Positions 5,894 through 52,000 of a DNA stretch of 64,000 nucleotides are shown one piece after another. Positions within the stretch are counted from its first letter, which is position 1; the number at the start of each line of letters is the position of its first letter. The stretch spans positions 21,641 through 85,640 of the forward strand of contig SYHX01000055.1 of assembly GCA_005799025.1 (NCBI GenBank), in the 5' to 3' direction. The position numbers were made by a program, and so were the translations under genes. Under the pieces are notes generated by a model. That model did not search any database, had not been told where the DNA came from, and saw only the letters and a program-made list of their open reading frames with translations. This DNA comes from Bacteroidota bacterium (GTDB lineage: Bacteria; Bacteroidota; Bacteroidia; UBA7662).

Positions 5894-5952
5894 GGTATTC
5901 GCTCGTGCCTAAAAAAGATTCTCTCACTCCTGTTTCGTTGAAAGGATCTCTA

Positions 5953-6687
5953 CTATCGCATGTCCACCACTTCAACTCCAGGATAAATCTTGGGATTGAA
6001 TGTAAATAAATCGTCTTTCAGCGTGGGGTTTGCTTTGAAACCCGTGATAACATAGGTGTATTGGACGCCTGATTTATCAAAAACAATGGCCTTCTGAATA
6101 AGGCGCGAGGCTTTATTAACTTTTAGTCGAACTTTGAAGTAAGAAACTGATTTGTTTTGCGGGATCAAGTCGATTTGGGCGTTTCCATCTTGGTTACCAC
6201 CAGTCTCGGTGTCCATAAATGAATTAAAACCCTTATCGTATAGGGTGAACAAGTTGTCCGGAGTAATCTGATCCGGGGTCGGCTCGTAGTTACCGATGCT
6301 CACCTCGTTCATTTCTTTGAGATAGGTCCAAGAGGTTTTTCCATCACTTATTAGCAACTGCTCACCCATATCGATTCTGAATTTTCGCCCTCTGAGAAAG
6401 AGTAATCCTTTGCGCCTTTCTTTGTTTTGGTTAGCACCACCGTTCATTTCCACGGCAACTTGGGCCTCCATCGACTTCATGGAACGGTAATGCTTGCTCA
6501 TTTCTTTCAAAAGCACCTTGGACCGCGCATCCCCCGACCCTTGCTGAACTTTGGCTTTCTTGCCTGCCTTGGCAGGCCTCTCGGTTTGATTGGATTTTCG
6601 TGGCTGTGGAGAAATTCCAGCAGTTCCTGTTTCGGGAACAGCGTGAATAAGGAACGCAACCGTCGTTAAAAGAAGTAAACTACGCAT
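5953..6687 (-). CDS. LolA-like outer-membrane lipoprotein carrier/sorting protein
   Basis: It has a signal peptide and a LolA-like core (LLISDGKTSWTYLKEMNEVSI....FTLYDKGFNS), and it lies immediately downstream of ftsK on the same strand, which is the classic ftsK-lolA arrangement. Confidence 0.55.
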   Translation of the reverse strand: MRSLLLLTTVAFLIHAVPETGTAGISPQPRKSNQTERPAKAGKKAKVQQGSGDARSKVLLKEMSKHYRSMKSMEAQVAVEMNGGANQNKERRKGLLFLRGRKFRIDMGEQLLISDGKTSWTYLKEMNEVSIGNYEPTPDQITPDNLFTLYDKGFNSFMDTETGGNQDGNAQIDLIPQNKSVSYFKVRLKVNKASRLIQKAIVFDKSGVQYTYVITGFKANPTLKDDLFTFNPKIYPGVEVVDMR

Positions 6688-6767
6688 AGAATGAGGAATA
6701 TTAGACCTATCTGAGCCAATACCGCTTCGCCTGGTAAAGACCCTTGTAGATTGAAAGAACTACAAAA

Positions 6768-10312: not shown

Positions 10313-10349
10313 TGCTAGAAACGATACTATTTTACGTTTTCGATTGCGT

Positions 10350-13243: not shown

Positions 13244-14070
13244 AAACGATGGTGCTGATCAAGCCATTGCTTCTCGCTTGCTTTCAAAGAATTAAATCCG
13301 CTTTTCGAAATTTTATCCAATAAACGATCGGTTTCAGATTGAATAAAATTGGAGTTCTTGGATTCTACTCTTATTGATTGACTTTTGGATCCTAAATTCC
13401 AGGAAAAAAGCTGGAATTGACCCTGCAAATGGCGCAAATAACCGTACCCCCACAAAGCCCCTCCGAGGTGGGCCCAATGCCCGCCAGAATTAGCCAAAAA
13501 CAAACCCGTAACATCATATAATAACAAAGCTACCCCTAACCAACGCAAACGAATAGGCAAGATTCCAAACAATCGAACCTCAAAATCTGGAGCCAGCAAT
13601 ACCGAAGCCCAGAAAAATGCCATCACCGCTGCTGATGCTCCAATTAAAGGTGGGGCATTCGCGGATTGTTCAATCCCCCCTGCGAGCCACCACCTTGACA
13701 GCCCTGTACCCAACCAGAACAACAAGGCCCCTGCCAATGCACCACCTCCATAAAACATCAAAATCACCCTTTGTCCCAAAAAACCAACCAAAAAATGAGC
13801 GGCCCAATACAACAAAAGCATATTCCACAACAAATGCCACAATCCTTGATGGCTCACCGAGTAAGTGAACAACGTCCACGGCTTCCAAAGGCATTGAAGC
13901 GGATAAGCCGGCAACGCCATCCAGCTCAGGATAAACGCCCTTGGATCGAACCAAGAGGATACCCACAGCACCATAAATACCAATACATTGACCGCTAACA
14001 AATGCTCAATCCGACCCCATCGATTCCATAGGTCTCTGGCCTCGTTCGCAAGGTGAGAAGCTCGATTCAT
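13240..14070 (-). CDS. Rhomboid family intramembrane serine protease
   Basis: Polytopic membrane protein with the Ser motif GASAAVMAFF and the His in AHLGGALWGY, plus a soluble C-terminal extension of about 60 aa. Confidence 0.8.
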   Translation of the reverse strand: MNRASHLANEARDLWNRWGRIEHLLAVNVLVFMVLWVSSWFDPRAFILSWMALPAYPLQCLWKPWTLFTYSVSHQGLWHLLWNMLLLYWAAHFLVGFLGQRVILMFYGGGALAGALLFWLGTGLSRWWLAGGIEQSANAPPLIGASAAVMAFFWASVLLAPDFEVRLFGILPIRLRWLGVALLLYDVTGLFLANSGGHWAHLGGALWGYGYLRHLQGQFQLFSWNLGSKSQSIRVESKNSNFIQSETDRLLDKISKSGFNSLKASEKQWLDQHHRL

Positions 14071-14789
14071 TCCCAGTGGCTATCCGATCGACCAAACCAA
14101 CGAACCATTGCAAAACCAAAAAGCATGCCGCCCAGATGAGCAAAATGAGCCACATTATCCGATGGATTGGCCTGGACCACAGCTAACAATTCAAAGGCCA
14201 CGTACATCACCGCCAGGTATTTAGCTTTGACCGGAACAAAGAAGAAAAGATAGAGATAATTGTTGGGAAACATAGTGGCGAAGGCGATCCATATTCCGGC
14301 AACAGCTCCGCTGGCACCAATAATATTAGGCCCGCTTAACAAATTTTCTTTTTCATTTTCCAAATCCAACAAGGTCCCTGCATTAGCCATCTTGATTTGA
14401 TCCTCAATCCGCAACAATTCTGGTCGTATATCCATCAAGAAAATGACCAAATAATGCAGAAAAGCAGCACCAACCCCTGCCACCAAATAAAAGGTCAAAA
14501 ACCGGGATGAGCCCCACACATTCTCAAGGATACTCCCGAACATCCAAAAGGAGAACATATTAAACAGCAAATGCTCAAAATTCCCGTGCATAAACAAGTG
14601 TGTCAAGGGCTGCCAATAGGCATAGGCCTTTGAACTAGGTAAATGCATTCCCAAAACCTCTATCAAGTCCATGCCAAGGCCCGTCTTTAACGCATAATTT
14701 CCTAGATAACAGAGACCGTTTATGATGACCATGTTTTTGACCACCGGAGGAAGGAATTCAAACCTTCCCGGGCTAATTGGATTGCTCAT
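14067..14789 (-). CDS. Rhomboid family intramembrane serine protease
   Basis: GASGAVAGIWIAF (Ser) and AHFAHLGGMLFGF (His). It forms a tandem with the downstream rhomboid, and its stop overlaps that gene's start (ATGA). Confidence 0.8.
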   Translation of the reverse strand: MSNPISPGRFEFLPPVVKNMVIINGLCYLGNYALKTGLGMDLIEVLGMHLPSSKAYAYWQPLTHLFMHGNFEHLLFNMFSFWMFGSILENVWGSSRFLTFYLVAGVGAAFLHYLVIFLMDIRPELLRIEDQIKMANAGTLLDLENEKENLLSGPNIIGASGAVAGIWIAFATMFPNNYLYLFFFVPVKAKYLAVMYVAFELLAVVQANPSDNVAHFAHLGGMLFGFAMVRWFGRSDSHWE

Positions 14790-17683: not shown

Positions 17684-20566
17684 TTAAGGGGTATGATAGT
17701 TTCTGCCATCCCTATGCCCTGAACTTATTTGTGCGGTGGAATTGGAGGGCTGGTAAGAACCGTTTACATCCCCAGCACACAAGACTGCCCAGCCCAACTG
17801 CACGGAGCTAAGTCCGTTCCAAGTAAATTGAGCGGGTTCAACGAGCCAATCAGCTACTGCAAAATTGTTTATAAGGCCTGTCAAACGCCTGCTAATCAAC
17901 AAAGCATCCGTACCGTTGGTCACCAAATTACCGTTGACATCCCCGGACCTGATACGCAAAGAAGTCCAAGTGATTCCACCGCCGAAATAGCGGGCCACCT
18001 GCAAGGCATCCGATGCATTCACCCCACCCCATAGGCTGAGGGGACTGACTTCAAGCACAAAATCTCCACCGCCACCCTGCGGAACGACAAAGAGATAATT
18101 CCCCAACGTATCCGTGGTATCCACCGCCACCACTTGACCTGTACCTATTCGTCGAAGCCTGCATACTGCCCCTTGCAAATACAAAGGCGGGCTGCGGTCG
18201 TACGAAACACGACCCGAAAGCGTAGGTCCCAGACCGCATAGACGAATCAGCAAAACTTGATTTCCTTGGGCTTGCATGGCCACCGGCATAGGACTTCCCG
18301 AGCTCTGGATCCAATGAGCCCCTATTGCTGTATCCAGCCTCAAAGTTCCCATAGATCCGGCGGTTGTTAAGGACAAAACCAACAAAGACGATGCGTTGGT
18401 TGCCCTTGGCGAACCCGACCACGAAATGGTCCAAGAACCGGCAGCGCTGGTCCATTGGAGCGGTCCCCAAAAGGAATCAACCCATCCGCCTGGTGGTGTC
18501 CCAAAAGAACCAAGATCTCCCACCAATCTAATTTGCCAAGCGATTACCGCCGGCCGGGAGTTGGTCTGTATTCGGAGGATTGCGTTGCTTCCCTGACAAA
18601 CCGAATCCGCCACCATCGAAACACAAGCCGTGCCCAAACTAACCTGCTGAATCAATAGGCTATCGCATCCCCCTATGTTCCTGAGGGTGTCCACGTAGGT
18701 GCCCGATGAGGAAAAAATTCTTCCCCCTGGACCAACCACAGAAACACAGCCTTGCAAGGCAAAGGTGGAATCTGTTGCACGACATCCCGTGAGATTGTTA
18801 TTGCGGGTAACCGTGGAACTGCCTTTGAGGATAATCTGTTCCGGGTCAAGGCTGAAAGTAGAGACTGTTCCTGAAACGCTAAAGGCTTGCACAGTTGTTC
18901 CTGCTTGCAACCATATCGTTTGATTAGGAATCCCTGTATTCGAAAAGGAAAGGCGTATCGGGATTTTGTTCCGAAAAGTTGGAGTGACTGACGGCGTGGT
19001 CACTGATTGAGCCACCTGAACCCACAAATTATTGCCGGATTGATTCCAAGTCAAGCTGTAGGTTGGATGCCCCTGTCCGTAAATCCAATCCTGAAAAAAA
19101 GGCTGTAAATTAATCCCACTCCCCGCTTCCAGGTATTGCCTAAATTCATTGGTGGTTGCAACCGCATGCTGTCTTCCAAGCAAATACTGCCTCGCAGCCC
19201 TGAAGAAAACCGTATCCCCTAACTCATGCCGTAACATATGCAAAACACAAGCCCCCTTTTTGTAAGTCAATGCTGAACTAAATATGCGATTTTCGTCCGC
19301 TCCTGTTGGAACGTAGACCGATGCGTTGGTCACCGATCTTGCCGAGGATTGCGCCGAGGTCATCCAAGAATTTGCGGAACTTTGTCCCAAAGCCGCCTGG
19401 CGGTACAGGTATTCCCCATACGATGCCCAACCCTCATTCAGCCAAATATCACTCCATGTAGCGCAGGTCACAAGATCGCCAAACCACTGATGAGCAAGCT
19501 CATGAGATACCAAATCGGTGCTGAAGCCGCCCATGGTGCTCATGGTCTGGTGTTCCATCCCTCCCCCCAGAGGGGCCATCATGTGGCCATATTTCTCGGT
19601 ACGAAATGGATAGGTTATCCATTGCCCGGAAAAGCGCTCCAGCATATCCGATGTTTGATTCAAATTATTCAACCAGAAGTTGAGGCAGCTCTGTCCCGAA
19701 CTGTTGTTGGCATTGTACACCCAATGTTGAATCAAAACCGAATCCCCCGGAACCGGCCTTGCATAATTCAAATACTCCGTGTAAGGAGCCACCGAAAAGG
19801 CAATCAAATAAAAAGCCTGCGGATAACGGGTCCTCCATTCGAAGCGGCTACGGTTGTTGGGAAGAATTTGGGTGGAAAACAACAAACCGTTGGAAGCTAC
19901 TTTGTTGGGATTGGCACAGGAACCCACGAAATCCACGGAATCAATCTTATCCCAAAGATCCTGTTTACAAGGAAACCAATCCGGCGCTCCAAAGGGCTCG
20001 GATAGGGTCCAAGTCGCACGAACCCCCCAGGTCGAAGAAGCCGCCGAGGTCACCCCTGCAAAGAAACCTGTGCCCGAAGGGATTCCTCCGTAGAAAACCC
20101 TGCATTCAAGATTGGATCCAACCTGCAAGGCCTGGTTCAAAGGAAATTTAACCACCTCTCCTACACGGTTCAATTGAGAGGCCAAATAACGCTGCCCGTT
20201 GAAAACCACCGAATCAATAGTCAAAAACGACCGTAATTCAAACCAAAAAGTATCCATGGCTCCCTGCAGGACAATCGCTTTGAAAAGGACATTGCCACTT
20301 AGGGCAGTTGAAGCCGTGGTTACATTCAAATCAAAACGGTAATAATGAATGTCGTAGACATCTGCTCCCCGGTTGACAGCCGCGGCTCTTCCTAATCCAC
20401 TTTCGTGCCAGAGCCTGCTCCTTTGCATGGCACCTAACTTGGCCTCAGCACAGCCATGCTGTTCAATAGTCTGCGCCCACGAAGGTGAGCATCCAAGGAG
20501 AATGCCAAGCCAAAAAAAAGCTCCTAAGGCAACATGAACTATGCCCTGTGTTTGAATCCCTTTCAT
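17684..20566 (-). CDS. M1 family zinc aminopeptidase (gluzincin) with C-terminal CarboxypepD_reg-like and dockerin-like module
   Basis: Signal peptide, then HELAHQWFGDLVTCATWSDIWLNEGWASYGEY (the HExxH...E zinc site) and GGMEHQTM (GxMEN-like exopeptidase motif). The C-terminal ~110 aa has the pattern WGGVNASDALQVARYF....SGDVNGNLVTNGTDALLISRRL...GDVNGSYQP. The first ATG is at 20566 (the track start is TTG at 20572). Confidence 0.85.
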   Translation of the reverse strand: MKGIQTQGIVHVALGAFFWLGILLGCSPSWAQTIEQHGCAEAKLGAMQRSRLWHESGLGRAAAVNRGADVYDIHYYRFDLNVTTASTALSGNVLFKAIVLQGAMDTFWFELRSFLTIDSVVFNGQRYLASQLNRVGEVVKFPLNQALQVGSNLECRVFYGGIPSGTGFFAGVTSAASSTWGVRATWTLSEPFGAPDWFPCKQDLWDKIDSVDFVGSCANPNKVASNGLLFSTQILPNNRSRFEWRTRYPQAFYLIAFSVAPYTEYLNYARPVPGDSVLIQHWVYNANNSSGQSCLNFWLNNLNQTSDMLERFSGQWITYPFRTEKYGHMMAPLGGGMEHQTMSTMGGFSTDLVSHELAHQWFGDLVTCATWSDIWLNEGWASYGEYLYRQAALGQSSANSWMTSAQSSARSVTNASVYVPTGADENRIFSSALTYKKGACVLHMLRHELGDTVFFRAARQYLLGRQHAVATTNEFRQYLEAGSGINLQPFFQDWIYGQGHPTYSLTWNQSGNNLWVQVAQSVTTPSVTPTFRNKIPIRLSFSNTGIPNQTIWLQAGTTVQAFSVSGTVSTFSLDPEQIILKGSSTVTRNNNLTGCRATDSTFALQGCVSVVGPGGRIFSSSGTYVDTLRNIGGCDSLLIQQVSLGTACVSMVADSVCQGSNAILRIQTNSRPAVIAWQIRLVGDLGSFGTPPGGWVDSFWGPLQWTSAAGSWTISWSGSPRATNASSLLVLSLTTAGSMGTLRLDTAIGAHWIQSSGSPMPVAMQAQGNQVLLIRLCGLGPTLSGRVSYDRSPPLYLQGAVCRLRRIGTGQVVAVDTTDTLGNYLFVVPQGGGGDFVLEVSPLSLWGGVNASDALQVARYFGGGITWTSLRIRSGDVNGNLVTNGTDALLISRRLTGLINNFAVADWLVEPAQFTWNGLSSVQLGWAVLCAGDVNGSYQPSNSTAQISSGHRDGRNYHTP

Positions 20567-20630
20567 ACCCAAAGAAACGTACTTACCTCTCTGGAACGAA
20601 AGATAGAAAATTAAAAAAACTTAAGGCTTC

Positions 20631-27081: not shown

Positions 27082-28458
27082 TTAATTCCCCGACTGCAAA
27101 CGCACGTAATGCGCAAAGAAATGGGGAATTGTTTCGATTCCTTTGAAATAATTAAAGACGCCGTAATGTTCATTCGGGGAGTGCAAGGCATCCGAGTCCA
27201 AGCCGAAACCCATCAGGACAGATTTAAGTCCTAATTCCTTTTCAAAAAGAGCCACAATGGGAATACTTCCACCGCCTCGAGTGGGAATGGGGCTTATCCC
27301 AAAGGTATCCAGCATAGCCAAGGACGCGGCCCGAAAAGCTACGCTGTCGGTAGGGGTAACCACCGGCTCTCCACCATGATGAGGTCTGACTTCCACCTGA
27401 ACCCCTGGAGGCGCGATCGATCGAAAATAGCGACTAAACAATTCTGTGGCTGACTCGGAACTCTGATGCGGAACCAAACGCATGGATATTTTGGCATAGG
27501 CCTTGGACGGTAGCACGGTCTTGGAACCTTCGCCGATATACCCCCCCCAAATACCGTTCACATCGAGGGTTGGCCGTATCCCCGTGCGCTCCATGGTATT
27601 ATAGCCTTCCTCGCCGCGCAATGCCTTAATTCCCAAATCTTTCATGTAGGCTTCTGCATCGAAGGGGGCTCGGTTCAACTCATCGCGTTCCGATTGGGTC
27701 AATTCTTGCACTTGATCATAGAAACCCGGTATCGTAATGCGACCCTGCACATCGTGCATTTGTGCAATCATCCCGCACAGGGCGTTGATGGGGTTAGTGA
27801 CGGCACCTCCGTAAACTCCGGAATGCAAATCCCGGTTGGGGCCGGTAACTTCAACTTCCAAATACGACAAACCGCGCAGACCAGAATCAATACTTGGAAC
27901 ATCATTGGCAATCATGCTGGTATCAGAAATAAGCACAACATCTGCGCGAAGGCGCTCTTTGTTCTCAACAATAAACGACGCGAGATTGGCTGAGCCCACT
28001 TCTTCTTCGCCCTCAATCATGAATTTGATATTGCAAGGAAGTGCATCGTAACGCATCATGTATTCGAATGCTTTGACATGCATGTAAACCTGTCCCTTAT
28101 CATCGCAGGCACCGCGGGCGTAAATTTTACCATCCCGAATTTCAGGCTCAAAAGGCGGGCTATGCCACAATTCGTAAGGATCTGCCGGCTGAACATCGTA
28201 ATGACCATACACCAAGACGGTAGGCAAGGCAGGGTCCAGGATGCGTTCCCCGTATACCACGGGATAACCCGCCGTGGGACAAACCTCCACCTGGTCCGCA
28301 CCAGCTTCCTTGAGTCGATCGGCTACGAATTGAGCCGCCTCAAAAACATCCTCGCTGAAATCCGGATTGGCCGAAACAGAGGGAATTCTTAACAAATCAA
28401 ACAACTCGTCCAGTAGGCGCTGGCGGTTTTCTTCGATAAAATGCTGGGGTGTGTTCAT
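27082..28458 (-). CDS. M20 family dipeptidase/peptidase (ArgE/DapE/PepV-like)
   Basis: The metal-binding and catalytic motifs VYGHYDVQPADP and YARGACDDKGQV are present, along with GGSIP near the C-terminus. Length is 458 aa. Confidence 0.85.
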   Translation of the reverse strand: MNTPQHFIEENRQRLLDELFDLLRIPSVSANPDFSEDVFEAAQFVADRLKEAGADQVEVCPTAGYPVVYGERILDPALPTVLVYGHYDVQPADPYELWHSPPFEPEIRDGKIYARGACDDKGQVYMHVKAFEYMMRYDALPCNIKFMIEGEEEVGSANLASFIVENKERLRADVVLISDTSMIANDVPSIDSGLRGLSYLEVEVTGPNRDLHSGVYGGAVTNPINALCGMIAQMHDVQGRITIPGFYDQVQELTQSERDELNRAPFDAEAYMKDLGIKALRGEEGYNTMERTGIRPTLDVNGIWGGYIGEGSKTVLPSKAYAKISMRLVPHQSSESATELFSRYFRSIAPPGVQVEVRPHHGGEPVVTPTDSVAFRAASLAMLDTFGISPIPTRGGGSIPIVALFEKELGLKSVLMGFGLDSDALHSPNEHYGVFNYFKGIETIPHFFAHYVRLQSGN

Positions 28459-31169: not shown

Positions 31170-34100
31170 ATGAACTATTTGATTTCGCGAAGCAAGGCGC
31201 TTTTGAGCAATATCATTTTTTTCATACTTACCAGCGGCCTAACCGCCTTCAATTCTAACGTGTTTGCGCAAGCACAAAGATCAAGCAGCGGCCCATTTCC
31301 GATGCCTCATCAGGGCGGCGTTCAAGAACTACCTGCTATTCCCGAGAATCCTGAGTCGTTGGCGCAAATTTGGGGCTCTTACCCCTCCTTTGACAGTAGG
31401 ATTTACCTAGCCTTGGGGGTGCACCGTTTACCCAGCACGGCTGAATGGAAAAAAATGGAAGAACTTGGACTGAACTATCAGGGGTATATGCCGCCTTTGG
31501 CGTATTTGGTTTCCGTCCCTGAACAGCCAAGCCCGGCTTTGCTCGAGTATTTGTCCGGTGAACGTGGTCTTTTTGCGGCCTGTGATCTGCTGAGGGTGGA
31601 CGCCAAACGGTCCATGGAGCTGACTCTTCCCTCGGCAGGACCTGGAATTTTGACTAAAAACGGCCTCAAAGGACTGCATATCGTGCTCCATCCTGGTGCG
31701 AACCTTGAAAGGTTCAAGGAATATTTGAGGAGCCTGCCCTTGGTGGAGTCTATGGAGCCTGCACACGGACAATTGGGGTTGAGCCTCTATGCCAATGATA
31801 CGGATGCTGAAATTCTCCTCGCCCACCCAGCCGTTCAATTCATGGAACCTGCCCGAGGGCCAGGAGAACCCGAAGATCGGGAAGCCCGCAGTTTGCATCG
31901 AGGTCACGCCATTGATAATAAAATGGAAGGGGGTACAAGGTATAATGGAAGCGGCATAACGGTTGCCATCGCAGATGATGGCGCCATTGGTCCCCACATT
32001 GATTTTAATGGGAGATTAACGCAATATTCAACCAATACCTCTTCGGCCAATACCCACGGTGATATGGTCTCTGGGATCGCTGTAGGTTCAGGTAATTTGA
32101 ATCCAACCCGGATTGGGGCAGCTTACGGTTCTTACCTGCACATGTACAGTATATCGAGCTACCCCCATATCGCCAATGCAGTTGCTAATTACAACAGCTT
32201 GGGCACGACCCTGACTTCCACATCGTATTCAGAGGTTAACGGCGGGGTTTACAACAGCAGCGCCGTGACTATCGATGGGCAAATTCAAAGCAATGCCATG
32301 TTGATGCATATATTCTCGGCCGGGAATGCTGGCACAGCCGATCATGGTTACGGGGCCGGGACCGGTTGGGGCAACATTACCGGTGGGTACAAGGCCGCCA
32401 AAAATGTAATCGCTGTGGGCAATTTACGCAACACCGATGCGCTCGAAAGCTCATCCAGCAGAGGCCCTGCCAAAGACGGTCGCATCAAACCCGATATCTG
32501 TGCCAACGGATACAACCAAATGTCCACCGCACCCAACAACACCTACCAAACCGGAGGAGGAACCTCAGCGGCATCTCCCTCGGTGATGGGAACCCTTGCC
32601 CAAATCAGCCACGGCTACCGAGCCATGAACAACAATACTGTGCCACCCACAGCCTTGCTCAAAGCAGCCATCCTGAATACCGCTGAAGACTTGGGTAATC
32701 CTGGGCCCGATTATCAATTTGGTTGGGGCCGGATCAACGCATTGCGCGCTATCCAATTGTTACAAAACAACCGTTATGTTACCGGAAATCTTGCAGTCAA
32801 CGATAGTATCAACCATGTCATTGATGTTCCAGCCAATGTTCGCCAATTAAGGGTGATGGTGTATTGGGCCGACTATGCAGGGATCGCCAATGCGACCCGT
32901 GCCTTGGTGAATAACCTTGATCTCAAGGTCCTTACCCCATCCAGCGCAACCCAATTACCTTTGAAATTGGACCCCAGTCCCAATACCGCTTCTTTGAGCA
33001 GTGTTGCGGTACCTGGCCTGGATTCCCTTAATAATGTGGAGCAGGTCCGCATCAACAACCCAGCAGCGGGAACCTATACGGCTCGCATCATGGGTCAAGG
33101 AATTGCACAAGGTCCGCAAGTTTATTGGTTGGTTTACGAATGGCATACCGACCAAATCACCATGACCTATCCCATGGGCGGCGAGTCTTTCGTCAGCGGA
33201 GAAACCGAAATCCTCCGATGGGATGCCACCGGAAATACGGGGCCATTCACCTTGCAATGGAGCTCCAACAACGGACAAAGCTGGACTACGATTGCAAGCA
33301 ATCTGGCAGCATCAGTTCGGCATTACAGCTGGGTGGTGCCTACGGTCACCAGCGGACAAATCAAAATTCGGGTAAGTTCCGGGGCAATCGTCAGTGAAAG
33401 CTCTCAACCTTTGAACATCAGTCCTTTGGTCTCCGGTATTGCCTTTCCTACGGTTTGTTCAACCTCCTTGAGCTTGTCATGGTCCGCCGTATCCGGCGCG
33501 GGTCGTTATGTCATTCATCGCCTAGGTTTAAGGTACATGGACTCCGTGGGCACCACGACCTCTACCACCTTTACAGTCAATGGCACCAACCTCAGTTCGG
33601 AAGATTGGTACGCGATTACCCCCATCGGCACCAACAATGATTGGAGAGGAAGGCGTTCCAATGCAGTGGCCAAACCTTTGACAGGCCCTATCAACTGCGC
33701 GGGGGGTTCCACTATTGGTGGTACCTTGGTTTATGGCAATACGGCTCAAAGCCCCATGACCAATACCATCATCGTGCTCAAACAGAACAATACCGAAATT
33801 GGCAGGGATACCACCGATGCGCAGGGCATTTTCAGGCTTGGTAATAGTCCTGCCGGGACTTATACCTTGGAATACCAGACCAACAAGGCTTGGGGCGGGG
33901 TCAATGCCACCGATGCCTTGGGCATTAACCGGCATTTCAGCAACGTGGCCACGCTGAGTGGATTCTATGCAATGGCAGCCGATCTCAATGCGAGTAATTC
34001 AATCAATGCAACGGACGCATTAATTACTGCTCGTAGATTTTCTAATCTTATAACCAGTATACCCGCAGGGAATTGGATTTTTGAGACAGGAACGTTGAAC

Positions 34101-34190
34101 CTTATCAACGGTGGCACCTACAACAACCTTATACTTAAATCGCTGACTTTCGGGGATGTAAACGGCTCCTATATCCCACCAGGGAATTAA
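31170..34190 (+). CDS. S8 family subtilisin-like serine peptidase with Fn3-like, CarboxypepD_reg-like and dockerin-like C-terminal modules
   Basis: Signal peptide, then catalytic Asp (VAIADDGAIGPHID), His (HGDMVSGIAVG) and Ser (GGGTSAASPSVMG). The C-terminus has an Fn3-like LSLSWSAVSGAGRYVI segment, then TDAQGIFRLGNSPAGTYTLEY, then WGGVNATDALGINRHF....ADLNASNSINATDALITARRF...GDVNGSYIPPGN. The first ATG is at 31170. Confidence 0.9.
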   Translation: MNYLISRSKALLSNIIFFILTSGLTAFNSNVFAQAQRSSSGPFPMPHQGGVQELPAIPENPESLAQIWGSYPSFDSRIYLALGVHRLPSTAEWKKMEELGLNYQGYMPPLAYLVSVPEQPSPALLEYLSGERGLFAACDLLRVDAKRSMELTLPSAGPGILTKNGLKGLHIVLHPGANLERFKEYLRSLPLVESMEPAHGQLGLSLYANDTDAEILLAHPAVQFMEPARGPGEPEDREARSLHRGHAIDNKMEGGTRYNGSGITVAIADDGAIGPHIDFNGRLTQYSTNTSSANTHGDMVSGIAVGSGNLNPTRIGAAYGSYLHMYSISSYPHIANAVANYNSLGTTLTSTSYSEVNGGVYNSSAVTIDGQIQSNAMLMHIFSAGNAGTADHGYGAGTGWGNITGGYKAAKNVIAVGNLRNTDALESSSSRGPAKDGRIKPDICANGYNQMSTAPNNTYQTGGGTSAASPSVMGTLAQISHGYRAMNNNTVPPTALLKAAILNTAEDLGNPGPDYQFGWGRINALRAIQLLQNNRYVTGNLAVNDSINHVIDVPANVRQLRVMVYWADYAGIANATRALVNNLDLKVLTPSSATQLPLKLDPSPNTASLSSVAVPGLDSLNNVEQVRINNPAAGTYTARIMGQGIAQGPQVYWLVYEWHTDQITMTYPMGGESFVSGETEILRWDATGNTGPFTLQWSSNNGQSWTTIASNLAASVRHYSWVVPTVTSGQIKIRVSSGAIVSESSQPLNISPLVSGIAFPTVCSTSLSLSWSAVSGAGRYVIHRLGLRYMDSVGTTTSTTFTVNGTNLSSEDWYAITPIGTNNDWRGRRSNAVAKPLTGPINCAGGSTIGGTLVYGNTAQSPMTNTIIVLKQNNTEIGRDTTDAQGIFRLGNSPAGTYTLEYQTNKAWGGVNATDALGINRHFSNVATLSGFYAMAADLNASNSINATDALITARRFSNLITSIPAGNWIFETGTLNLINGGTYNNLILKSLTFGDVNGSYIPPGN

Positions 34191-41012: not shown

Positions 41013-41375
41013 ATGAGAACCCTGCTTTTACATTACACTGCGCTTGCCACAGCGCTATCGACAGCCCAAGTCTGGGGCCAGACCACAATCCATACACCGC
41101 AAGGCGCTCTTGGGGTATCAGCTCAGGTACGATCCCTGCGCCAATTCTATTGGATTCGCGAATTGCCACCCCATGACGAAACCCCTGGTAACGGAAGAAT
41201 GGGCTACTTCGGCAGCGAAACACCCATTACTCTTCTTTGGAGAAAAGGAAATGAGGCGATTTTAAGGGCCCAATGCCTTCATCCCAATGCATGGTTTAGC
41301 GAACCGGCAGAAAGCCCTATAGATTCATTGCTGAAGAAACGTGTTCATTCCACGATTCAATTGGAAATCGAATGA
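41013..41375 (+). CDS. Hypothetical small secreted protein (first gene of putative pilus-like locus)
   Basis: About 120 aa with a signal-like N-terminus MRTLLLHYTALATALSTAQVWGQ. Its stop overlaps the next ORF's ATG (ATGA). No recognisable domain was found. Confidence 0.35.
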   Translation: MRTLLLHYTALATALSTAQVWGQTTIHTPQGALGVSAQVRSLRQFYWIRELPPHDETPGNGRMGYFGSETPITLLWRKGNEAILRAQCLHPNAWFSEPAESPIDSLLKKRVHSTIQLEIE

Positions 41376-41926
41376 GGGTTTGGGTTTTCTTGCTTATTAT
41401 GTTATGGCATTGGACGGGGGGGGATAATTTCGCCCTCGCCCAAAGAGGGACCGTGCGAGCGCGTATCATGAACGGTTATGCAGGATTGATTTTTGATCAG
41501 GTTGGAACTCCCATTGTCAGCGGAAATCAACAAAGCTACAGCATCGCAATTCATGATTCAAGGACCCTGGTACTTGAAATCGCAGCCCCGGCCAGGACGC
41601 CTTTAATGATTCAAATTCAGCCTGTTACCGAGGTCTGGAACTATTCGGCTTTACCACCCACTTCCATTCCTTTTGTTTGGGAAGCGGCCTTCTGCAACGA
41701 AGGCATTAACGATGAAAGGATGGCAAGGCGTCAAGCTATTCCATTAAATACCAATCAAAATATTTTTCAATTTGAAATGGGTGATTACCAGAACATTCCA
41801 GGTAATCCTGAACCCGTTGAAAACCAGATCAAAGCCTTTTTATATATGTGTGGTCGCTTAGGCCCAGTAGGCCAGGTTACCCCTGGTTATTTCGCCAATT
41901 CCATGAATATCGAGGTTTGGTATTGA
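41372..41926 (+). CDS. Hypothetical secreted protein (candidate minor pilin-like subunit)
   Basis: Clear signal peptide MRVWVFLLIMLWHWTGGDNFALAQ, a beta-rich composition, and the aromatic C-terminus ...NIEVWY. Confidence 0.4.
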   Translation: MRVWVFLLIMLWHWTGGDNFALAQRGTVRARIMNGYAGLIFDQVGTPIVSGNQQSYSIAIHDSRTLVLEIAAPARTPLMIQIQPVTEVWNYSALPPTSIPFVWEAAFCNEGINDERMARRQAIPLNTNQNIFQFEMGDYQNIPGNPEPVENQIKAFLYMCGRLGPVGQVTPGYFANSMNIEVWY

Positions 41927-42015
41927 ACCGCGCCTTAAGCACTCGATATTCATAACACTTTATTAATTGCCCAACCAATCACCTATTTTTTTAACACTTA
42001 ACCCCCCATCCACCC

Positions 42016-42603
42016 ATGAAAAAGACCCTAACAACCAAAAACCTCATGAGCATCAGCCTTGTTGTATCAATGCTTATGGCCCATAGAATGTATGCTCAGA
42101 ACACAGGCGTCATCAACACCAACCTCAATGTTGGTGCAACCGTCCTAGCTCAACTCAAATTAACCAACAATGCGGATGTTCAATTTGGCAATCTATCTGC
42201 GACAACTCCCGGTCATGTTTTCCTATCGCCCACAGGAAGCGGCCACACCAATACCGGGGTCAGCACCTCGGTTGGCAAATTCACGGTGGAAGGATCTACC
42301 ACCGGCTCAGTCAAAGTCACATGGCCTGCCAACATTTCTCTCAACTCCTCGGTAGGAGGCAATACGTTGGTTTACAATTTACAGGTCAACGGAAATGGAA
42401 GCGACCTGGCCTCTGGATCCACCATCCTTGGAACCGGAGGCCTTGGGGTAGCCTCCACGGCAGATATTACCCTTGTGGCCGGCAAATACTACCTCTATGT
42501 AGGGGGAAAAATCGGAGGCAACGCCGGCAGCCCCGCCAATCTCAATGCCCAAGGCATAGGGGTTTATTCCGGTATCGCCAATTTCAGAGCAGAGTACAAT
42601 TGA
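42016..42603 (+). CDS. DUF4402 / spore-coat-protein-U (SCPU)-like secreted protein (candidate major pilin of archaic chaperone-usher system)
   Basis: Signal peptide ...AHRMYAQ. The mature region is low-complexity and rich in G/T/S/N/V with alternating beta pattern (...DVQFGNLSATTPG..., ...LGTGGLGVASTADITLVAGKYYLYVGGKIG...) and ends GIGVYSGIANFRAEYN. This matches my recollection of DUF4402/SCPU family architecture. Confidence 0.5.
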   Translation: MKKTLTTKNLMSISLVVSMLMAHRMYAQNTGVINTNLNVGATVLAQLKLTNNADVQFGNLSATTPGHVFLSPTGSGHTNTGVSTSVGKFTVEGSTTGSVKVTWPANISLNSSVGGNTLVYNLQVNGNGSDLASGSTILGTGGLGVASTADITLVAGKYYLYVGGKIGGNAGSPANLNAQGIGVYSGIANFRAEYN

Positions 42604-42615
42604 TCCTTTCACCAC

Positions 42616-42650
42616 CCCCCTCCTCGGTTGGGTGGAGGGGGATTTATTTA
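42616..42650 (+). terminator. Rho-independent terminator / attenuator hairpin after the DUF4402-like gene
   Basis: An 8-bp all-G/C stem cccccTCC / GGAggggg (42616-42623 paired with 42634-42641) encloses a 10-nt loop (tcggttgggt) and is immediately followed by the T-rich tract atttatttaaat. Confidence 0.5.
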
Positions 42651-42683
42651 AATAAAAAAACTATATATCAAAATACCATCATA

Positions 42684-43550
42684 ATGAACAAAATTATTTT
42701 AGTCATGAGTCTTTATACTGTATCGAATTGGTGCAAAGCGCAGGTGAGTATTGCTCCTACGGGTATCTTGCTGGACCATCAAGGTCAAGGTACCGTCTAT
42801 ATTGGAAACACGGGCAATCAAATCCAGGAAGTTCGTATTCAATTTCTATTCGGGTATCCTGTGCAAGATTCCTTGGGTGAAATTCAAATGATCTATGGCG
42901 ATACGATTCGAGAAAAATCCCATGGACTAGGAAATTCTATCAAAGCCTACCCCTCAGCTTTTACGTTACAACCTCAATCGCAACAAATGGTGAGGCTTCT
43001 TTTGAAGGAACGTCACTTCCGTGAAGAAGGTCTTTACTTCAGCCGAATCAAAATTACCTCTCAAGCAGCAGTGGGGGAGGCTGGAACCATCGACACTGCG
43101 ATGGTAGGCACGAAAGTTGCCTTTCGCTTTGAACAATTCCTGCCTGTGTTCTTCCAAGTTGGCCAACCTGAACCCGATCTTCAGGTATCCCCTCAATCCT
43201 TGCAATCGGATTACCGACACGGAGCTCTACGCTTTGATTATCAATGCGCAAGCAATTCTCCATATTTGGGACAACTGCGTTACCGACTCGTTTCAGCATT
43301 AGCCAATTCATCTACAAGCAACGTTCCTGAACCCTTGGCTAATCAAGAAAAAGTCACAGCATGGAAGGAAATGGAAATTGCATTGTATTTCAACGGTAAT
43401 CGCCGTTGCCTTTTGGCGTGGCCCAACACCCTAGAATCAGGGAAGCACTGTCTTGAACTTGAATTCCATCGAGGGCGCAGTGATTTTCCAGCGCTTGGTG
43501 CTGGAAAGGTTCCTAATTATCGGGGTAAAGTTCACTTTGAATTGCCATGA
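42684..43550 (+). CDS. PapD-like periplasmic pilus chaperone (putative)
   Basis: Signal peptide MNKIILVMSLYTVSNWCKAQ. The mature N-terminus VSIAPTGILLDHQGQGTVYIGNTGNQIQEVRIQF parallels the first-strand region of PapD/FimC/CsuC chaperones (V-S-[LI]-x-[RP]-T-[RG]-[VI]-[IL]...T[LV]x[IV]xNxG). At about 288 aa it is consistent with two Ig-like domains. The first 120 aa of track ORF 42321-43550 are an out-of-frame overlap artefact. Confidence 0.5.
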   Translation: MNKIILVMSLYTVSNWCKAQVSIAPTGILLDHQGQGTVYIGNTGNQIQEVRIQFLFGYPVQDSLGEIQMIYGDTIREKSHGLGNSIKAYPSAFTLQPQSQQMVRLLLKERHFREEGLYFSRIKITSQAAVGEAGTIDTAMVGTKVAFRFEQFLPVFFQVGQPEPDLQVSPQSLQSDYRHGALRFDYQCASNSPYLGQLRYRLVSALANSSTSNVPEPLANQEKVTAWKEMEIALYFNGNRRCLLAWPNTLESGKHCLELEFHRGRSDFPALGAGKVPNYRGKVHFELP

Positions 43551-43560
43551 AACGGAAACG

Positions 43561-46299
43561 ATGTGCAGTACAGAATGTCTTACCCTATGTTATTTTTTAT
43601 GTTCCACTCCCTACGATTCGTTGTCCAATTCCATAAGCCCTCGAGATAGCGTAGAATATCAAGTCTTGGCAAGCTACTCCGGTTACCCTGCAGGTTGGTT
43701 GACCCTCCTCAAAACAGACCAAAGATATTGGTTTCCCCTGAATCTTTGGCTTGAGCAGAGTGGATTTGCGTATTTTCATCCGCTACATAACCAATCCTTT
43801 CACCGATTGCGCCTGCGGAACCCTGTTGATCACAGGATTGGGCAATTCCAAATTGGGGGATACTCTCCCCTGCAATCCAAACCTTGGAAAATATACCATA
43901 GATTCCAGAATATATCTATGAAAAGCAACCCATTGAAGGAATATTTCTTTGATCACCGTCAAACCATATGGGTGAGCAACCATTGGATAGCGTTGCAGTA
44001 CGGCATGGCCACCAAATTCAATGAACCCGCCTTGGAGCTTGATTTTTCGGGGAAGGTCGAGGCGCCCGTAAAGGAATGGAACGATTACCATGCTCGATGG
44101 CTCAAGATAAATGCCATAAAATCTCCGACCCTATTAAAGGATTCGATGGATATTCATCGACCAAAAACAGAAAGTAAATCGATAGAGATTTCTACTTGGT
44201 CTGGACGGTATGAAATCCATTTCCAATCAGGGAAGTTCAACTCCAATATTCAATGGGATGCAGTGGGGCATCTAGGCAAGATTGGTTTTAGGGCCTTTGG
44301 AACTGCCAATGCCATCTTAGAAAGATCGACCAACATTCCAAATTATGAACCAAGAAATGCCCTCACTACAAGGAATACAAAAATAGAATGGCCCAGCCTT
44401 GAACTTGAATGGGCATGGGGATCGCAACAACAAATTAACCTTATTATTTCACCTGCTTCAGTGTCAAGTTTCTGGAAAATAACAGGAGGAAATACGCTTA
44501 TGAGTAGAACGATTGGCTTTGAAGCTCCAAAAGGGATTCATACCCGGCGATGGAAACCTCCCACAGCAATGAGTGAATGGTCTTTCAACCATGGTCCTTT
44601 CATGAATCACCCGCATTTTCCAATGACCACCTCACCCAACGCGAGTAAAGATCGTCTTGATGAAACCAAGGATCTTGTTCCTGTTGCTCTACTCCCCGGA
44701 AGCAACCAAATTGATTATCGGTACAAGAATGCATGGGGAGGAATCTCAAATCGCAGCTTGTTGTGGAATATTCCCGGTTTGATGATACCAGAAGGCCGCT
44801 GGAATTATCGCTATGAATTTTCTGCACCTCTACGGATAAGTGGTATCGTTGGCTACGGCTTAAGGCCTTCTTTAAGTCTTCAATCGGAAGCCATTGTTCA
44901 GCCGGCCAAGGATACAGGCAGAAACCTAGAATGGGATGTCAAAGGCTCCGCCATCTGGACGGCAGGACGAATATTGTATGGACAAAGCCAATATACTGTA
45001 GGCCACGACAATCAAAAATGGGAACAACGTCTTCATTTCTATTTTAGTCAAAGCCTGCAAAGCTCACTCCATTACCAATCATACACCTACTCATTTGATC
45101 CCAAACCAATTGGCGAGTTCTTGAATCTATCAGGACTTTGGATACTCCCAAAAGGTTACGGTCTCAAAATGCTACGTCTTGAATATCCTCTCATGAAGCT
45201 AATTCGGCCCCAACTTCGTCACGAGTTATACCAAGCTATCCTACAATTCGAGGGATGGGGACAGCAATGGCTTTGGCAAATTCCTGAGCACCGTTTATCA
45301 TGGCAAGGAAGAATCCAGCTCAAAGCACCCTCCCTTACCCTGGTATATCAGGCTATCGCTCACCAAGAGGGTTGGCAAGCGTTCGTACAAGGCCACCTGC
45401 GAGGGGGCCACCACTTGGGCGTTTCGTACTCTTTGAACAGGCAGAATACTTCCAACAGGCTCCCAACGACGCAACCAAAGGCAGGGAATTGGGCCTTGGA
45501 ATGGAAGTGGGTGGGGCTTCAAAGCAGCCGATCAGTGCGCGCGCTCCTCAACCGCGAGTCTTCACGATTGGAATACCATGGGCAATTCACCTTATCTCGC
45601 AATAATAACACACTGCCTATCAGCGCGACTAACGGATTAGCGTTGATTCTTCTGGATTTCTACGGAGACCAAAACGCCAATGGAACCAAGGACCCTGATG
45701 AAAATACACTTGATGCATATGGTGCTTTTGATTTGCCCGCGGGAATACCTTACCAATTGCTGGTCAATGGTTCAGCGCTGCTCGGTCCTTTCCCAAATTA
45801 TAACCATGTACGCATTCGGCTCACCCCCCATCATATGCGCAGCCCCGGATGGATTAGCGATCATCTTACAATGGAACTTCATTCCATTCCAAACTCTACC
45901 ATCAAATACCAAATTGCCTTGTTACGAGGTCGGCAAATTTTCGGTACACTCACTTTGGGCAAAATCCCTGCATCCACCATGTCTAATTCCTTGTCAACTA
46001 ACCCCGGAGGAATCCGAATTTACGTCCAACGTTGGGATGAAGGGCCATTATTGGAGTCTTGCCTAAGCGACAGCACGTCTAGCCCCGTATCCCATTCCTG
46101 CAAGCAAACCCTAACCCTTAGCGATGGGTATTTTGAATTCAATGACCTTAGGCCCGGACTCTACAAGGTTTGGGTGGATTGTTCTACCCTTCGCCGATTG
46201 GGATATTCAGGCCATTGTTCTCCGCAAATTCTAGATCTACACCAAGAAGAATCCGTTGAGGTCAATTTTAATTCACCACTAACCTTGGATATTCCCTAA
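43561..46299 (+). CDS. Large beta-rich outer-membrane usher-like protein (putative pilus usher)
   Basis: About 912 aa, located immediately after the chaperone, which is usher-like in size and position. It is aromatic-rich with alternating beta-strand patterns throughout, and its C-terminus has a CarboxypepD_reg / Ig-like beta-sandwich (GYFEFNDLRPGLYKVWVD). The start is uncertain: the ATG at 43561 has a weak signal peptide, and the reading frame stays open upstream to 43453, overlapping the chaperone. Confidence 0.4.
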   Translation: MCSTECLTLCYFLCSTPYDSLSNSISPRDSVEYQVLASYSGYPAGWLTLLKTDQRYWFPLNLWLEQSGFAYFHPLHNQSFHRLRLRNPVDHRIGQFQIGGYSPLQSKPWKIYHRFQNISMKSNPLKEYFFDHRQTIWVSNHWIALQYGMATKFNEPALELDFSGKVEAPVKEWNDYHARWLKINAIKSPTLLKDSMDIHRPKTESKSIEISTWSGRYEIHFQSGKFNSNIQWDAVGHLGKIGFRAFGTANAILERSTNIPNYEPRNALTTRNTKIEWPSLELEWAWGSQQQINLIISPASVSSFWKITGGNTLMSRTIGFEAPKGIHTRRWKPPTAMSEWSFNHGPFMNHPHFPMTTSPNASKDRLDETKDLVPVALLPGSNQIDYRYKNAWGGISNRSLLWNIPGLMIPEGRWNYRYEFSAPLRISGIVGYGLRPSLSLQSEAIVQPAKDTGRNLEWDVKGSAIWTAGRILYGQSQYTVGHDNQKWEQRLHFYFSQSLQSSLHYQSYTYSFDPKPIGEFLNLSGLWILPKGYGLKMLRLEYPLMKLIRPQLRHELYQAILQFEGWGQQWLWQIPEHRLSWQGRIQLKAPSLTLVYQAIAHQEGWQAFVQGHLRGGHHLGVSYSLNRQNTSNRLPTTQPKAGNWALEWKWVGLQSSRSVRALLNRESSRLEYHGQFTLSRNNNTLPISATNGLALILLDFYGDQNANGTKDPDENTLDAYGAFDLPAGIPYQLLVNGSALLGPFPNYNHVRIRLTPHHMRSPGWISDHLTMELHSIPNSTIKYQIALLRGRQIFGTLTLGKIPASTMSNSLSTNPGGIRIYVQRWDEGPLLESCLSDSTSSPVSHSCKQTLTLSDGYFEFNDLRPGLYKVWVDCSTLRRLGYSGHCSPQILDLHQEESVEVNFNSPLTLDIP

Positions 46300-49989: not shown

Positions 49990-50427
49990 ATGTCCGATAC
50001 CCAACGCAACGTTCTCAAAACCAAAGTACATGACGCCGACGTTTTGGCTTTTATTGACTCCTTTGCCTCAACCGACCAAAAACGACAGGACAGCCTCGAC
50101 ATTATCGCGCTCATGTCCAAAGTGAGCGGTTTCCCGCCCAAAATGTGGGGTGCAAGCATGATCGGCTTTGGCGCCTATCATTACAAATCCGAAAAAAGCC
50201 GACAAGAGGGAGATTGGTTCCTGTTGGGATTTTCCCCCCGTAAGGCCGCCATATCCCTCTACGTGTACACAGGTTCTCCTGAGCATGCCAGCCTTCTGGA
50301 AGGATTGGGCAAATTCAAAGCCGCCAAAGCCTGCTTGCACATCCAAAAATTAGCCGATATTGACCAGGCCGTGTTGACCAAGCTCATGAAAACGACCATT
50401 GCTTTTCTCCAAAAAAAGTACCCTTAG
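49990..50427 (+). CDS. DUF1801 (YdhG/YdeI-like) domain protein
   Basis: A 145-aa protein matching the pattern VLAFIDSFASTDQKRQDSLDIIALMSKVSGFPPKMWGASMIGFGAYHYKSEKSRQEGDWFLLGFSPRKAAISLYV, typical of DUF1801. Confidence 0.6.
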   Translation: MSDTQRNVLKTKVHDADVLAFIDSFASTDQKRQDSLDIIALMSKVSGFPPKMWGASMIGFGAYHYKSEKSRQEGDWFLLGFSPRKAAISLYVYTGSPEHASLLEGLGKFKAAKACLHIQKLADIDQAVLTKLMKTTIAFLQKKYP

Positions 50428-50431
50428 CGCA

Positions 50432-52000
50432 ATGCCTTTAACCGTGAAAGCTAATTTTTGGCCTATTTACTTCTTCGTAGGTCATCTGTTGTTATGCTAT
50501 GTAAATATAAGCAAGGCTCAAATGCCTGCGGGGCGTATTCTTGCAGGGTATTATCATAATTGGAATACCGCATCTGCACCTCATGTACCTCTGGATCAAT
50601 CCCATAATGCGTACAATCTTATTCATGTCGCCTTTGCCACTCCAATTCCCGGAACTTTGTACAAAATGGAATTCAATCCAGTAATGTACAATCCTACAAA
50701 TTTCAAAACTCAAATTCAAACGGTACAAGCCGCTGGCAAAAAGGTATTCATTAGCCTTGGAGGGGGTCTACACCCGGTGCGCATGGTGAATCTTGCCCAA
50801 AAAGACACCTTTGTAAATACCATATCCGCTATTTTGGATTATTACGGATTTGATGGTATCGATATTGATTTTGAGGGAACTTCGTTATTGGCCGCTGGTA
50901 ATAACATCAACCAACCTGCAGATTCCGGTGCCCATTACCTCATTCGCGCAATCCGACAACTTATGGAGCGTCATCGCAACATATATCAGCGAAAGTTAGG
51001 CCTCACGATGGCTCCAGAAACAGCTTTTGTTCAGGGCGGTATGGCCGCGTATGGAGGTATTTGGGGAGCATATCTACCCGTTATTCAAGCACTTAGAGAT
51101 TCGTTGGACCTTATGCAGGTACAACTCTACAATTCTGGTACTATGCCAGCGCTTAATGGTCAGAACTATGCAGCAGGTACCGCAGATTTTATTGTGGCCC
51201 TCTCAGAGGCTTTAATTAGGGGATTCCAAACCTCAGGGGGCTTGTTTCTTGGCCTGCGACCCCAGCAAATTGCTGTTGGTCTCCCCGCCTGTCCTATGGC
51301 GGCAGGTTCAGGCTATACCGATACCACCACGGTAGGTGCTGCAATGCGTTATTTGTTAGGAAGAGGCCCACGAACCGGACAATATATTTTAATCCAGAAC
51401 GGCGGTTATCCTCAACTGGGTGGGATGATGACATGGAGCATCCCTTGGGATGCTACGGCATCATGTGCAGTCCCCTATGAATTTGCACATCAATTTCAGC
51501 GGATTTTTTCATTATCACCTCCGGTTTTTGGTAGAACCCTGTATGCCAATAGTGCTCTAACCCCCTTATCTAATACAAGTATTCGTCTTGTGCAACAAAA
51601 CCTTGCCTTTGCTTCAGATACTACAGATTTTATGGGAAATTTTGATTTAGGATATATTACTCCTGGTTCTTATGGTATTGAATACCGAACATCCGTGCTT
51701 TGGGGCGGAGTCAATGCAACAGATGCATTGTTAACTGCCAGGCATTTCAGTAACATTTCTCTGTTGAACGGGATTCATCTGCAAGCGGCGGACGTCAACG
51801 CTTCAGGAACCGTGAATGCTACCGATGCCCTGACGATATCCCGCAGATTTTCCAATTTGATTCCTAATTTTCCGGCAGGCGACTGGCTATGGGAAAACAG
51901 AACCCTCCTGGTAGGACCTGGTGGAAATTACCAGAATTTAGTATGGCGCGGACTTACCTTTGGAGATGTCAATGGGTCGTATATTCCAAACGCATTATAA
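50432..52000 (+). CDS. Glycoside hydrolase family 18 (chitinase-like) with C-terminal CarboxypepD_reg-like and dockerin-like module
   Basis: Signal peptide (…CYVNISKAQ) followed by the GH18 catalytic motif in YYGFDGIDIDFEG (DxxDxDxE). The C-terminus reads DTTDFMGNFDLGYITPGSYGIEY...WGGVNATDALLTARHF....ADVNASGTVNATDALTISRRF...GDVNGSYIPNAL. Confidence 0.8.
   Translation: MPLTVKANFWPIYFFVGHLLLCYVNISKAQMPAGRILAGYYHNWNTASAPHVPLDQSHNAYNLIHVAFATPIPGTLYKMEFNPVMYNPTNFKTQIQTVQAAGKKVFISLGGGLHPVRMVNLAQKDTFVNTISAILDYYGFDGIDIDFEGTSLLAAGNNINQPADSGAHYLIRAIRQLMERHRNIYQRKLGLTMAPETAFVQGGMAAYGGIWGAYLPVIQALRDSLDLMQVQLYNSGTMPALNGQNYAAGTADFIVALSEALIRGFQTSGGLFLGLRPQQIAVGLPACPMAAGSGYTDTTTVGAAMRYLLGRGPRTGQYILIQNGGYPQLGGMMTWSIPWDATASCAVPYEFAHQFQRIFSLSPPVFGRTLYANSALTPLSNTSIRLVQQNLAFASDTTDFMGNFDLGYITPGSYGIEYRTSVLWGGVNATDALLTARHFSNISLLNGIHLQAADVNASGTVNATDALTISRRFSNLIPNFPAGDWLWENRTLLVGPGGNYQNLVWRGLTFGDVNGSYIPNAL

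Follow-up and report, generated by a model that had tools for sequence, protein, structure and literature searches.

Cohesin–dockerin assembly is the textbook principle of the cellulosomes of Gram-positive bacteria, and their type I dockerins have a dual binding mode. Cohesins and dockerins also occur on non-cellulolytic proteins outside cellulosomes (Archaeoglobus fulgidus, PDB 2XDH; survey of Peer et al., 2009; dockerins of rumen Bacteroidetes, PMC6487960). Here we analyse a 64,000-nucleotide stretch of a Bacteroidota bacterium genome (GenBank assembly GCA_005799025.1, contig SYHX01000055.1, positions 21,641 to 85,640 of the forward strand; hereafter the window), which encodes a secreted-type subtilase of peptidase family S8. 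The last ~160 residues of this protein form a module that recurs on a GH18 glycoside hydrolase and an M1 aminopeptidase, and that is predicted to be a dockerin nested in a beta-sandwich. The module is most likely a docking tag for the cohesin–dockerin attachment of enzymes at the cell surface, a reading to which we give a probability of about 0.6.

One module on three enzymes

A six-frame motif search of the window found the C-terminal motifs of the S8 protein in only two other open reading frames (ORFs), those of the GH18 and M1 enzymes (Table 1). Local Smith–Waterman alignments of the three C-termini, compared with 500 residue shuffles, gave z-scores between 29 and 69: the S8–GH18 pair scored 434 against 35.2 ± 5.8 for the shuffles (z = 69), S8–M1 scored 204 (z = 29) and GH18–M1 scored 235 (z = 36), with shuffles at about 34 ± 6 across the three pairs. 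In addition, the Pfam model Dockerin_1 (PF00404) exceeds its gathering score of 22.9 in all three proteins (S8 24.7, GH18 34.6, M1 29.3). The preliminary description of this DNA had proposed a module common to the three enzymes, and the proposal stands on both the dockerin scores and the alignments, which are significant against shuffled controls.

The S8 and GH18 modules are collinear without a gap across 153 residues (55% amino acid identity), and the motifs WGGVNATDAL, ADxNASxxxNATDALxxxRRFSNLI, PAGxW and the terminal LTFGDVNGSYIP agree exactly or almost so in the two. The collinearity of motifs that had been claimed for all three copies thus holds for this pair, whereas the M1 module is more diverged (about 30% identity), carries merely approximate versions (WGGVNASDAL, GDVNGNLVTNGTDALLISRRLTGLI, VADW and LCAGDVNGSYQP) and continues for ~20 residues after the terminal motif. 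This 20-residue tail is kept in M1 orthologues (…SYQPSNSTAR…). With a lipobox-like LLGC in its signal sequence near 20500, the M1 enzyme is a possible lipoprotein, in which it would differ from the S8 and GH18 enzymes. The GH18 enzyme shows a weak resemblance to endo-beta-N-acetylglucosaminidase H.

That three unrelated catalytic domains within 35 kb carry one module could mean that a mobile module cassette was recently duplicated or recombined inside this genome. However, the S8 and GH18 module DNA is only 56% identical (62% at codon position 1, 71% at position 2 and 35% at position 3), with a longest in-register exact run of 10 nt and the same codon at 31 of the 84 identical residues; blastn between modules returned a single high-scoring segment pair of 55 nt for S8–GH18 and one of 30 nt for S8–M1. 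Orthologues in other metagenome-assembled genomes (MAGs) are far closer for S8 (82% in L004, 66% in P0147 and 61% in L008–L012, the last with extra PKD domains), GH18 (85–88% in L014, L016 and L018) and M1 (75–80% in P0024 and P0037) than are the paralogous modules within the window, at merely 30–55%. Because each enzyme-plus-module has its own orthologues elsewhere, the paralogues split before the MAG lineages did. Recent duplication is therefore rejected by the codon-level comparison and the orthologue identities, and is scarcely credible. The nucleotide alignment of the C-termini, which the preliminary description had named as the way to tell a recent duplication from an ancient shared domain, supports the latter: judged from their sequences, the copies are old paralogues maintained by purifying selection.

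Fold and calcium loops of the module

An AlphaFold2 model of the module (164 residues, built from an 87-sequence alignment, A2) has a mean predicted local distance difference test (pLDDT) value of 94.8 and a predicted template modelling (pTM) score of 0.86. Along the chain it places five strands (residues 5–62), three helices (71–81, 89–95 and 105–115) and three further strands (127–151), and it contains both the seven-strand sandwich of CarboxypepD_reg/transthyretin-like domains and a three-helix dockerin fold with two loop-helix repeats. At most 98 of the 164 residues align with any one solved PDB chain, in agreement with Foldseek, and among the solved structures compared none covers sandwich and dockerin together; also, no NCBIfam model covers the whole unit. 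From the order of strands and helices, Foldseek and the limited chain matches, it follows that the dockerin is nested and does not simply follow the sandwich. In the predicted fold, the module is one transthyretin/CarboxypepD_reg-like sandwich whose strands 5 and 6 are separated by an inserted three-helix dockerin. Both parts had been recognized in the preliminary description and are borne out by the Dockerin_1 scores and the model, but their tandem order gives way to nesting.

Profile comparisons fit this arrangement. The module profile matches solved dockerins (8x39_A, E = 7e-8; 1ohz_B, E = 2e-5), and CarboxypepD_reg (PF13620) scores 22.2 bits in the S8 protein, below its cut-off of 32.3; the match covers profile positions 2–55 of 82 and ends there because the dockerin insert interrupts the domain. 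Conservation was counted over 186 non-redundant module sequences, and W127 is conserved in 181 of them.

The second calcium loop of the dockerin is complete (D96, N98, S100, N104 and D107), whereas the first is contiguous for positions 6–12 only, which are supplied by GGVNATD after strand 5; all Dockerin_1 and PDB-dockerin matches in the family begin at dockerin position 8. The shared terminal motif LTFGDVNGSYIP can now be refined into the last sandwich strand and an apparent missing first half of loop 1. When DVNGS is joined to GGVNATD, the result reproduces the family consensus of the intact loop 2, DVNASGxVNSTD. Both half-loops are strongly conserved, the terminal one at D154 (185 of 186), N156 (156 N and 25 D) and S158 (180), and the internal one at G67 (176), G68 (178), N70 (167) and D73 (181), while the Tyr-x-Pro that follows the terminal half is kept at Y159 in 147 and at P161 in 167 sequences. 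Grafting GDVNGS in silico before GGVNATD raised the Dockerin_1 score from 30.5 to 44.9, from 40.6 to 55.1 and from 35.4 to 50.8, gains of 14.4–15.4 bits for the three copies of the window, and moved the start of the match to profile position 1–2. Further, residues 151–160, which hold the terminal motif, reach a pLDDT of 97, and GDVNGSYxP is unchanged whether it lies 3–7 or about 225 residues from the C-terminus. Calcium loop 1 thus appears to be split, with DVNGS from ~85 residues downstream completing GGVNATD, so that bound calcium would act as a clasp between dockerin and sandwich. A staple of the two half-loops by Cys62 and Cys151 was rejected because Cys62 is found in only 38 of the 186 sequences while Cys151 is found in 140, which leaves no consistent pair.

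Relatives, cohesins and the proposed role of the module

When 1.84 billion representatives were searched with the profile, E ≤ 1e-3 was reached by 18,998 clusters and E ≤ 1e-30 by 1540, the latter number being an upper bound because the top multi-stretch hits match the sandwich part only. A scan of genome loci with one genome per species, queried with alignment A3, gave at least 535 module copies, nearly all in Bacteroidota MAGs, mostly from freshwater, and often 6–9 per genome; one of the copies found belongs to an isolate, Roseimarinus sediminis DSM 28824. The closest comes from a ‘Sphingobacteriia’ MAG of Lake Lanier (82%). Lake Tanganyika MAGs labelled ‘Sphingomonadales bacterium’ (L006, L007, L014–L016, L019, L021, L026, L040 and L075) carry Bacteroidota-type genes, including T9SS (type IX secretion system) sorting domains and the module, and this label is probably wrong. 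The cargo is very diverse: in 37 proteins, 57 Pfam families were recognized, including S8, M1 and C25 peptidases, PKD, BACON, CBM48, RCC1 and Kelch. An odd case is P0073 (349 aa, from ENA), in which a ParA/MinD-type ATPase N-terminus is fused to a complete module on a 1.4-kb contig; since the ATPase is of a cytoplasmic type, the fusion is unexpected and probably reflects a chimera of assembly or gene calling.

Position within the protein bears on whether the module might itself be a secretion or sorting signal, such as a new T9SS C-terminal domain or another export tag, recognized by the translocon and needing no cohesin. T9SS sorting domains are likewise C-terminal beta-sandwiches, the module takes up the very C-terminus of 79 among 174 full-length copies and of all three window proteins, and the latter have signal peptides while Pfam and NCBIfam scans found no known T9SS sorting domain in them. 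Yet the module is internal in 67 of the 174 copies, followed by a uniform tail of 220–234 aa, and likewise in 63 of 92 module ORFs from 80 genome loci (tail of ~225 aa), where a cohesin and a genuine Por_Secre_tail come after it with GDVNGSYxP intact. Tandem modules also occur, three in P0130 (616 aa) and two in P0212 (462 aa), and P0132 (5359 aa) has the module at both ends; such repeats suggest multivalent docking. In addition, the module matches neither Por_Secre_tail, CHU_C nor the NCBIfam T9SS models. Because the module is often internal, ahead of a true sorting domain, we regard a secretion signal as very unlikely.

The tail and its neighbours provide the candidate partners. The profile of the first tail domain (~140 aa) matches the Archaeoglobus cohesin 2xdh_A (E = 1e-6), and in P0119 this domain carries PF00963; the rest of the tail is a Por_Secre_tail T9SS sorting domain in all four cases tested. 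Scaffoldin-like proteins with 2–4 cohesin-like repeats adjoin module genes at L047, L075, L061, L067 and L040, and the Pfam Cohesin model scores 44–65 bits in them, above its cut-off. The L040 locus (3683–7317) encodes a ‘signal peptide–module–cohesin–T9SS sorting domain’ adaptor of about 460 aa (3683–5134) beside a two-cohesin, Ig-repeat protein (681–696 aa; 5218–7317). This unit recurs in other MAGs (L086–L091), with sucA/sucB and a KdtA-like gene as neighbours, and its second gene is labelled ‘cohesin domain-containing protein’ by NCBI. One MAG, VHAW01, holds both the L040 cohesin locus and an S8 module (L006) that is 82% identical to that of the window.

Two further arrangements were observed in relatives. 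At L047 (2084–7266) and L075 (2066–7202), the protein with three cohesin-like repeats itself ends in a nested dockerin module, and its gene lies directly 5′ of a module-bearing alpha-amylase, an amylosome-like pair in Bacteroidota MAGs. At L087, an S8 peptidase and another CarboxypepD_reg and dockerin protein lie about 3.5 kb downstream of the two-gene unit.

We propose that the S8 protease, GH18 and M1 enzymes would be exported via Sec and that the module would serve as their address tag, its nested dockerin binding cohesin domains. These cohesins would be borne by multi-cohesin scaffoldin-like proteins and by module–cohesin–T9SS sorting domain adaptors on the outer membrane, so that several enzymes would be assembled at the cell surface for foraging on protein or glycoprotein. 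The two dockerin repeats are near-symmetric, with A-T at loop positions 10–11 and R/K-H and R/K-R at residues 79–80 and 113–114, and a dual binding mode would therefore be possible.

Possible routes across the outer membrane include hitch-hiking on a carrier that combines a cohesin with a T9SS C-terminal domain (CTD), a lipoprotein route for M1 (LLGC) and vesicles. In the first of these, the dockerin of a module-only enzyme would bind the cohesin–T9SS carrier in the periplasm, where calcium is present, and the two would leave as a folded complex via the type IX translocon; the sortase-processed carrier would then stay anchored to lipopolysaccharide (LPS) with the enzyme docked. We consider this specific route quite unlikely. 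If it were true, it would constitute a piggy-back secretion and display system that uses a nested, calcium-clasped dockerin, a mode of export of which we know no description for T9SS.

Several observations weigh against docking. A hidden Markov model of 37 family cohesin and T9SS tails found no cohesin or T9SS sorting domain in the window or in 10 kb beyond it, and the four candidate proteins examined as homologues of a relative's scaffoldin all lie in assemblies other than that of the window. The S8, GH18 and M1 proteins also have no recognized T9SS sorting domain (PF18962, PF13585, TIGR04183 and TIGR04131; E ≤ 0.1), which leaves their route through the outer membrane unexplained. Moreover, the terminal motif could be a calcium site of the sandwich itself, as in SdrD_B: SdrD_B-type sandwiches possess EF-hand-like calcium sites of their own, and they match 14 of the 37 family members tested. 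Finally, many non-cellulosomal dockerins are without a proven partner (Peer et al., 2009, as cited in PMC6487960).

Alternatively, the module could be a calcium-stabilized adhesion or substrate-binding unit, similar to a carbohydrate-binding module and directed at polysaccharide, peptidoglycan or the cell's own LPS, in which the EF-hand insert is structural and no cohesin partner is involved. The sandwich is similar to adhesin domains of the CnaB, SdrD_B and transthyretin-like kinds, the 64 kb searched contain no cohesin, and dockerin-like sequences outside cellulosomes are often without known partners (Peer et al., 2009, as cited in PMC6487960). However, the fusion or adjacency of the module to Pfam-positive cohesins across the clade would be left unexplained, and the helix positions through which type I dockerins recognize cohesins are conserved here, with near symmetry of the two repeats. 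We therefore hold a binding unit of this kind to be unlikely, and prefer docking to cohesins.

The locus and its place among known systems

An independent gene call also uses the ATG start of the S8 gene, with an identical product in five public contigs. The Peptidase_S8 match spans the full-length Pfam profile (E = 2e-31, 109.7 bits, residues 270–530), and the catalytic Asp, His and Ser and the oxyanion Asn all lie within conserved motifs. The N-terminus reads as a Sec signal peptide, and the ~220 aa between it and the catalytic domain gave no Pfam match. Downstream, the PPC-like domain scores 28.2 bits in the orthologue P0147, though without any individually significant stretch. The Fn3-like domain of the preliminary description is plausible, yet fn3 (PF00041) stays below its threshold (16.3 bits against 25, E = 0.012, profile 7–80 of 84); the other upstream beta domain gives a weak match to an Fn3-like PDB chain. 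The signal peptide, intact S8 motifs and string of domains agree with the large multidomain protease first envisaged, which would presumably act at the surface.

Table 1. Coordinates of the S8 protease gene, its domains and other features of the window
Feature	Position	Strand	Remarks
S8 subtilase gene	31170..34190	+	1006 aa from ATG; mechanical ORF from TTG 31140 = 1016 aa
Predicted Sec signal peptide MNYLISRSKALLSNIIFFILTSGLTAFNSNVFAQA	31170..31274	+	Basic n-region, hydrophobic core, AxA-type site, read by eye
S8 catalytic domain	31947..32729	+	Asp/His/Asn/Ser motifs VAIADDG, THGDMV, SAGNAG, GGTSAASP
PPC (pre-peptidase C-terminal)-like beta domain	32823..33089	+	Pfam PPC 23.8 bits against cut-off 25.9, scanned alone
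Ig-like beta domain (weak)	33093..33416	+	Kre9_KNH E = 0.0015; Big_7 E = 0.011; PDB 3mpc_A (Fn3-like) E = 0.04
Fn3-like domain containing LSLSWSAVSGAGRYVI	33417..33707	+	Pfam fn3 below threshold
Module, sandwich strands 1–5	33708..33881	+	Model residues 5–62
Module, inserted dockerin	33891..34061	+	W-GGVNATD (calcium loop 1, second half), helices 1–3, complete calcium loop 2
Complete calcium loop 2 of dockerin, DLNASNSINATD	33981-34016	+	Between helix 2 and helix 3
Module, sandwich strands 6–7 (PAGNW...NLILKSLTF)	34062..34151	+	AlphaFold2 strands 127–129, 133–136, 142–151
GDVNGSYIP	34152..34178	+	Proposed calcium loop 1 first half (positions 1–5) and conserved Tyr-x-Pro
GH18 gene	50399-52000	+	Glyco_hydro_18; catalytic DGIDIDFE at 50852; module 51530-51988
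M1 aminopeptidase gene	17684-20572	-	Peptidase_M1; HELAH and GGMEH motifs; module about 17747-18238
S46 dipeptidyl-peptidase	3704-5893		
M28 peptidase	9293-10384		
Rhomboid-family genes	13240-14789	-	Two adjoining; first with DUF6576 C-terminal extension
M20 peptidase	27082-28458		
Poorly annotated run	41372-46299	+	184-aa ORF without Pfam match; DUF4402 protein (42016-42603); 288/409-aa ORF without match; 948-aa ORF (43453-46299) without Pfam family at E ≤ 1e-3

The window otherwise holds ordinary housekeeping genes, among them FtsK, MutL, GlnA-III, PurL and CysS. Three further peptidases (S46, M28 and M20) lie near the module enzymes and are compatible with a protein-foraging lifestyle. The poorly annotated run could be a surface-fibre or fimbria-like cluster.

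The dockerin as such is not new here, since NCBI labels relatives ‘dockerin type I domain-containing protein’. Neither the nested sandwich–dockerin unit with its split loop 1 nor a module–cohesin–T9SS cassette, that is, a T9SS-linked cohesin–dockerin system, was found in Pfam, NCBIfam, PDB or the searchable literature, the coverage of which is incomplete. The cohesin–dockerin pair is met here as a large family of Gram-negative Bacteroidota, with many copies per genome and on proteases, glycosidases and adhesin-like proteins. If the dockerin does bind cohesin, these abundant freshwater bacteria would forage on protein and glycoprotein with a multi-enzyme system at their surface, and the module would offer protein engineers a compact docking tag clasped by calcium. 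The family also raises the question of how proteins without a T9SS signal exit the periplasm.

Among known systems, the X-dockerin dyads (type II/III; PDB 4U3S, 5G5D and 2B59) also pair a dockerin with a second domain, but there the X module stands in tandem ahead of the dockerin whereas here the two are nested (TMq only 0.29). In none of the solved sandwiches of the CarboxypepD_reg, transthyretin-like, CnaB and SdrD_B types (PF13620, PF17210; 5AQ0, 8BDW, 4JDZ) are strands 5 and 6 separated by a helical insert. The non-cellulosomal cohesin–dockerin pairs named at the outset are likewise on non-cellulolytic proteins; the nested module and the module–cohesin–T9SS cassette are not described there, as far as the literature searched extends. 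Closest is the type I dockerin of clostridial cellulosomes (PF00404; C. thermocellum Xyn10B, PDB 1OHZ/2CCL), which shares the two duplicated loop-helix segments and the DxNxS/D...N..D ligands, and on which the predicted fold superposes at 1.3–1.5 Å with the Pfam gathering score passed. Both dockerins stand at the C-terminus of secreted hydrolases in lineages that also have cohesin proteins. In contrast to the clostridial type, the module belongs to Gram-negative Bacteroidota, its dockerin is inserted in a beta-sandwich and not free-standing, and its loop 1 is interrupted, with the first five residues coming from about 85 residues downstream. The cargo, too, consists of proteases and GH18 in place of cellulases, and the presumed partner cohesins are linked to T9SS sorting domains and not to SLH or sortase anchors.

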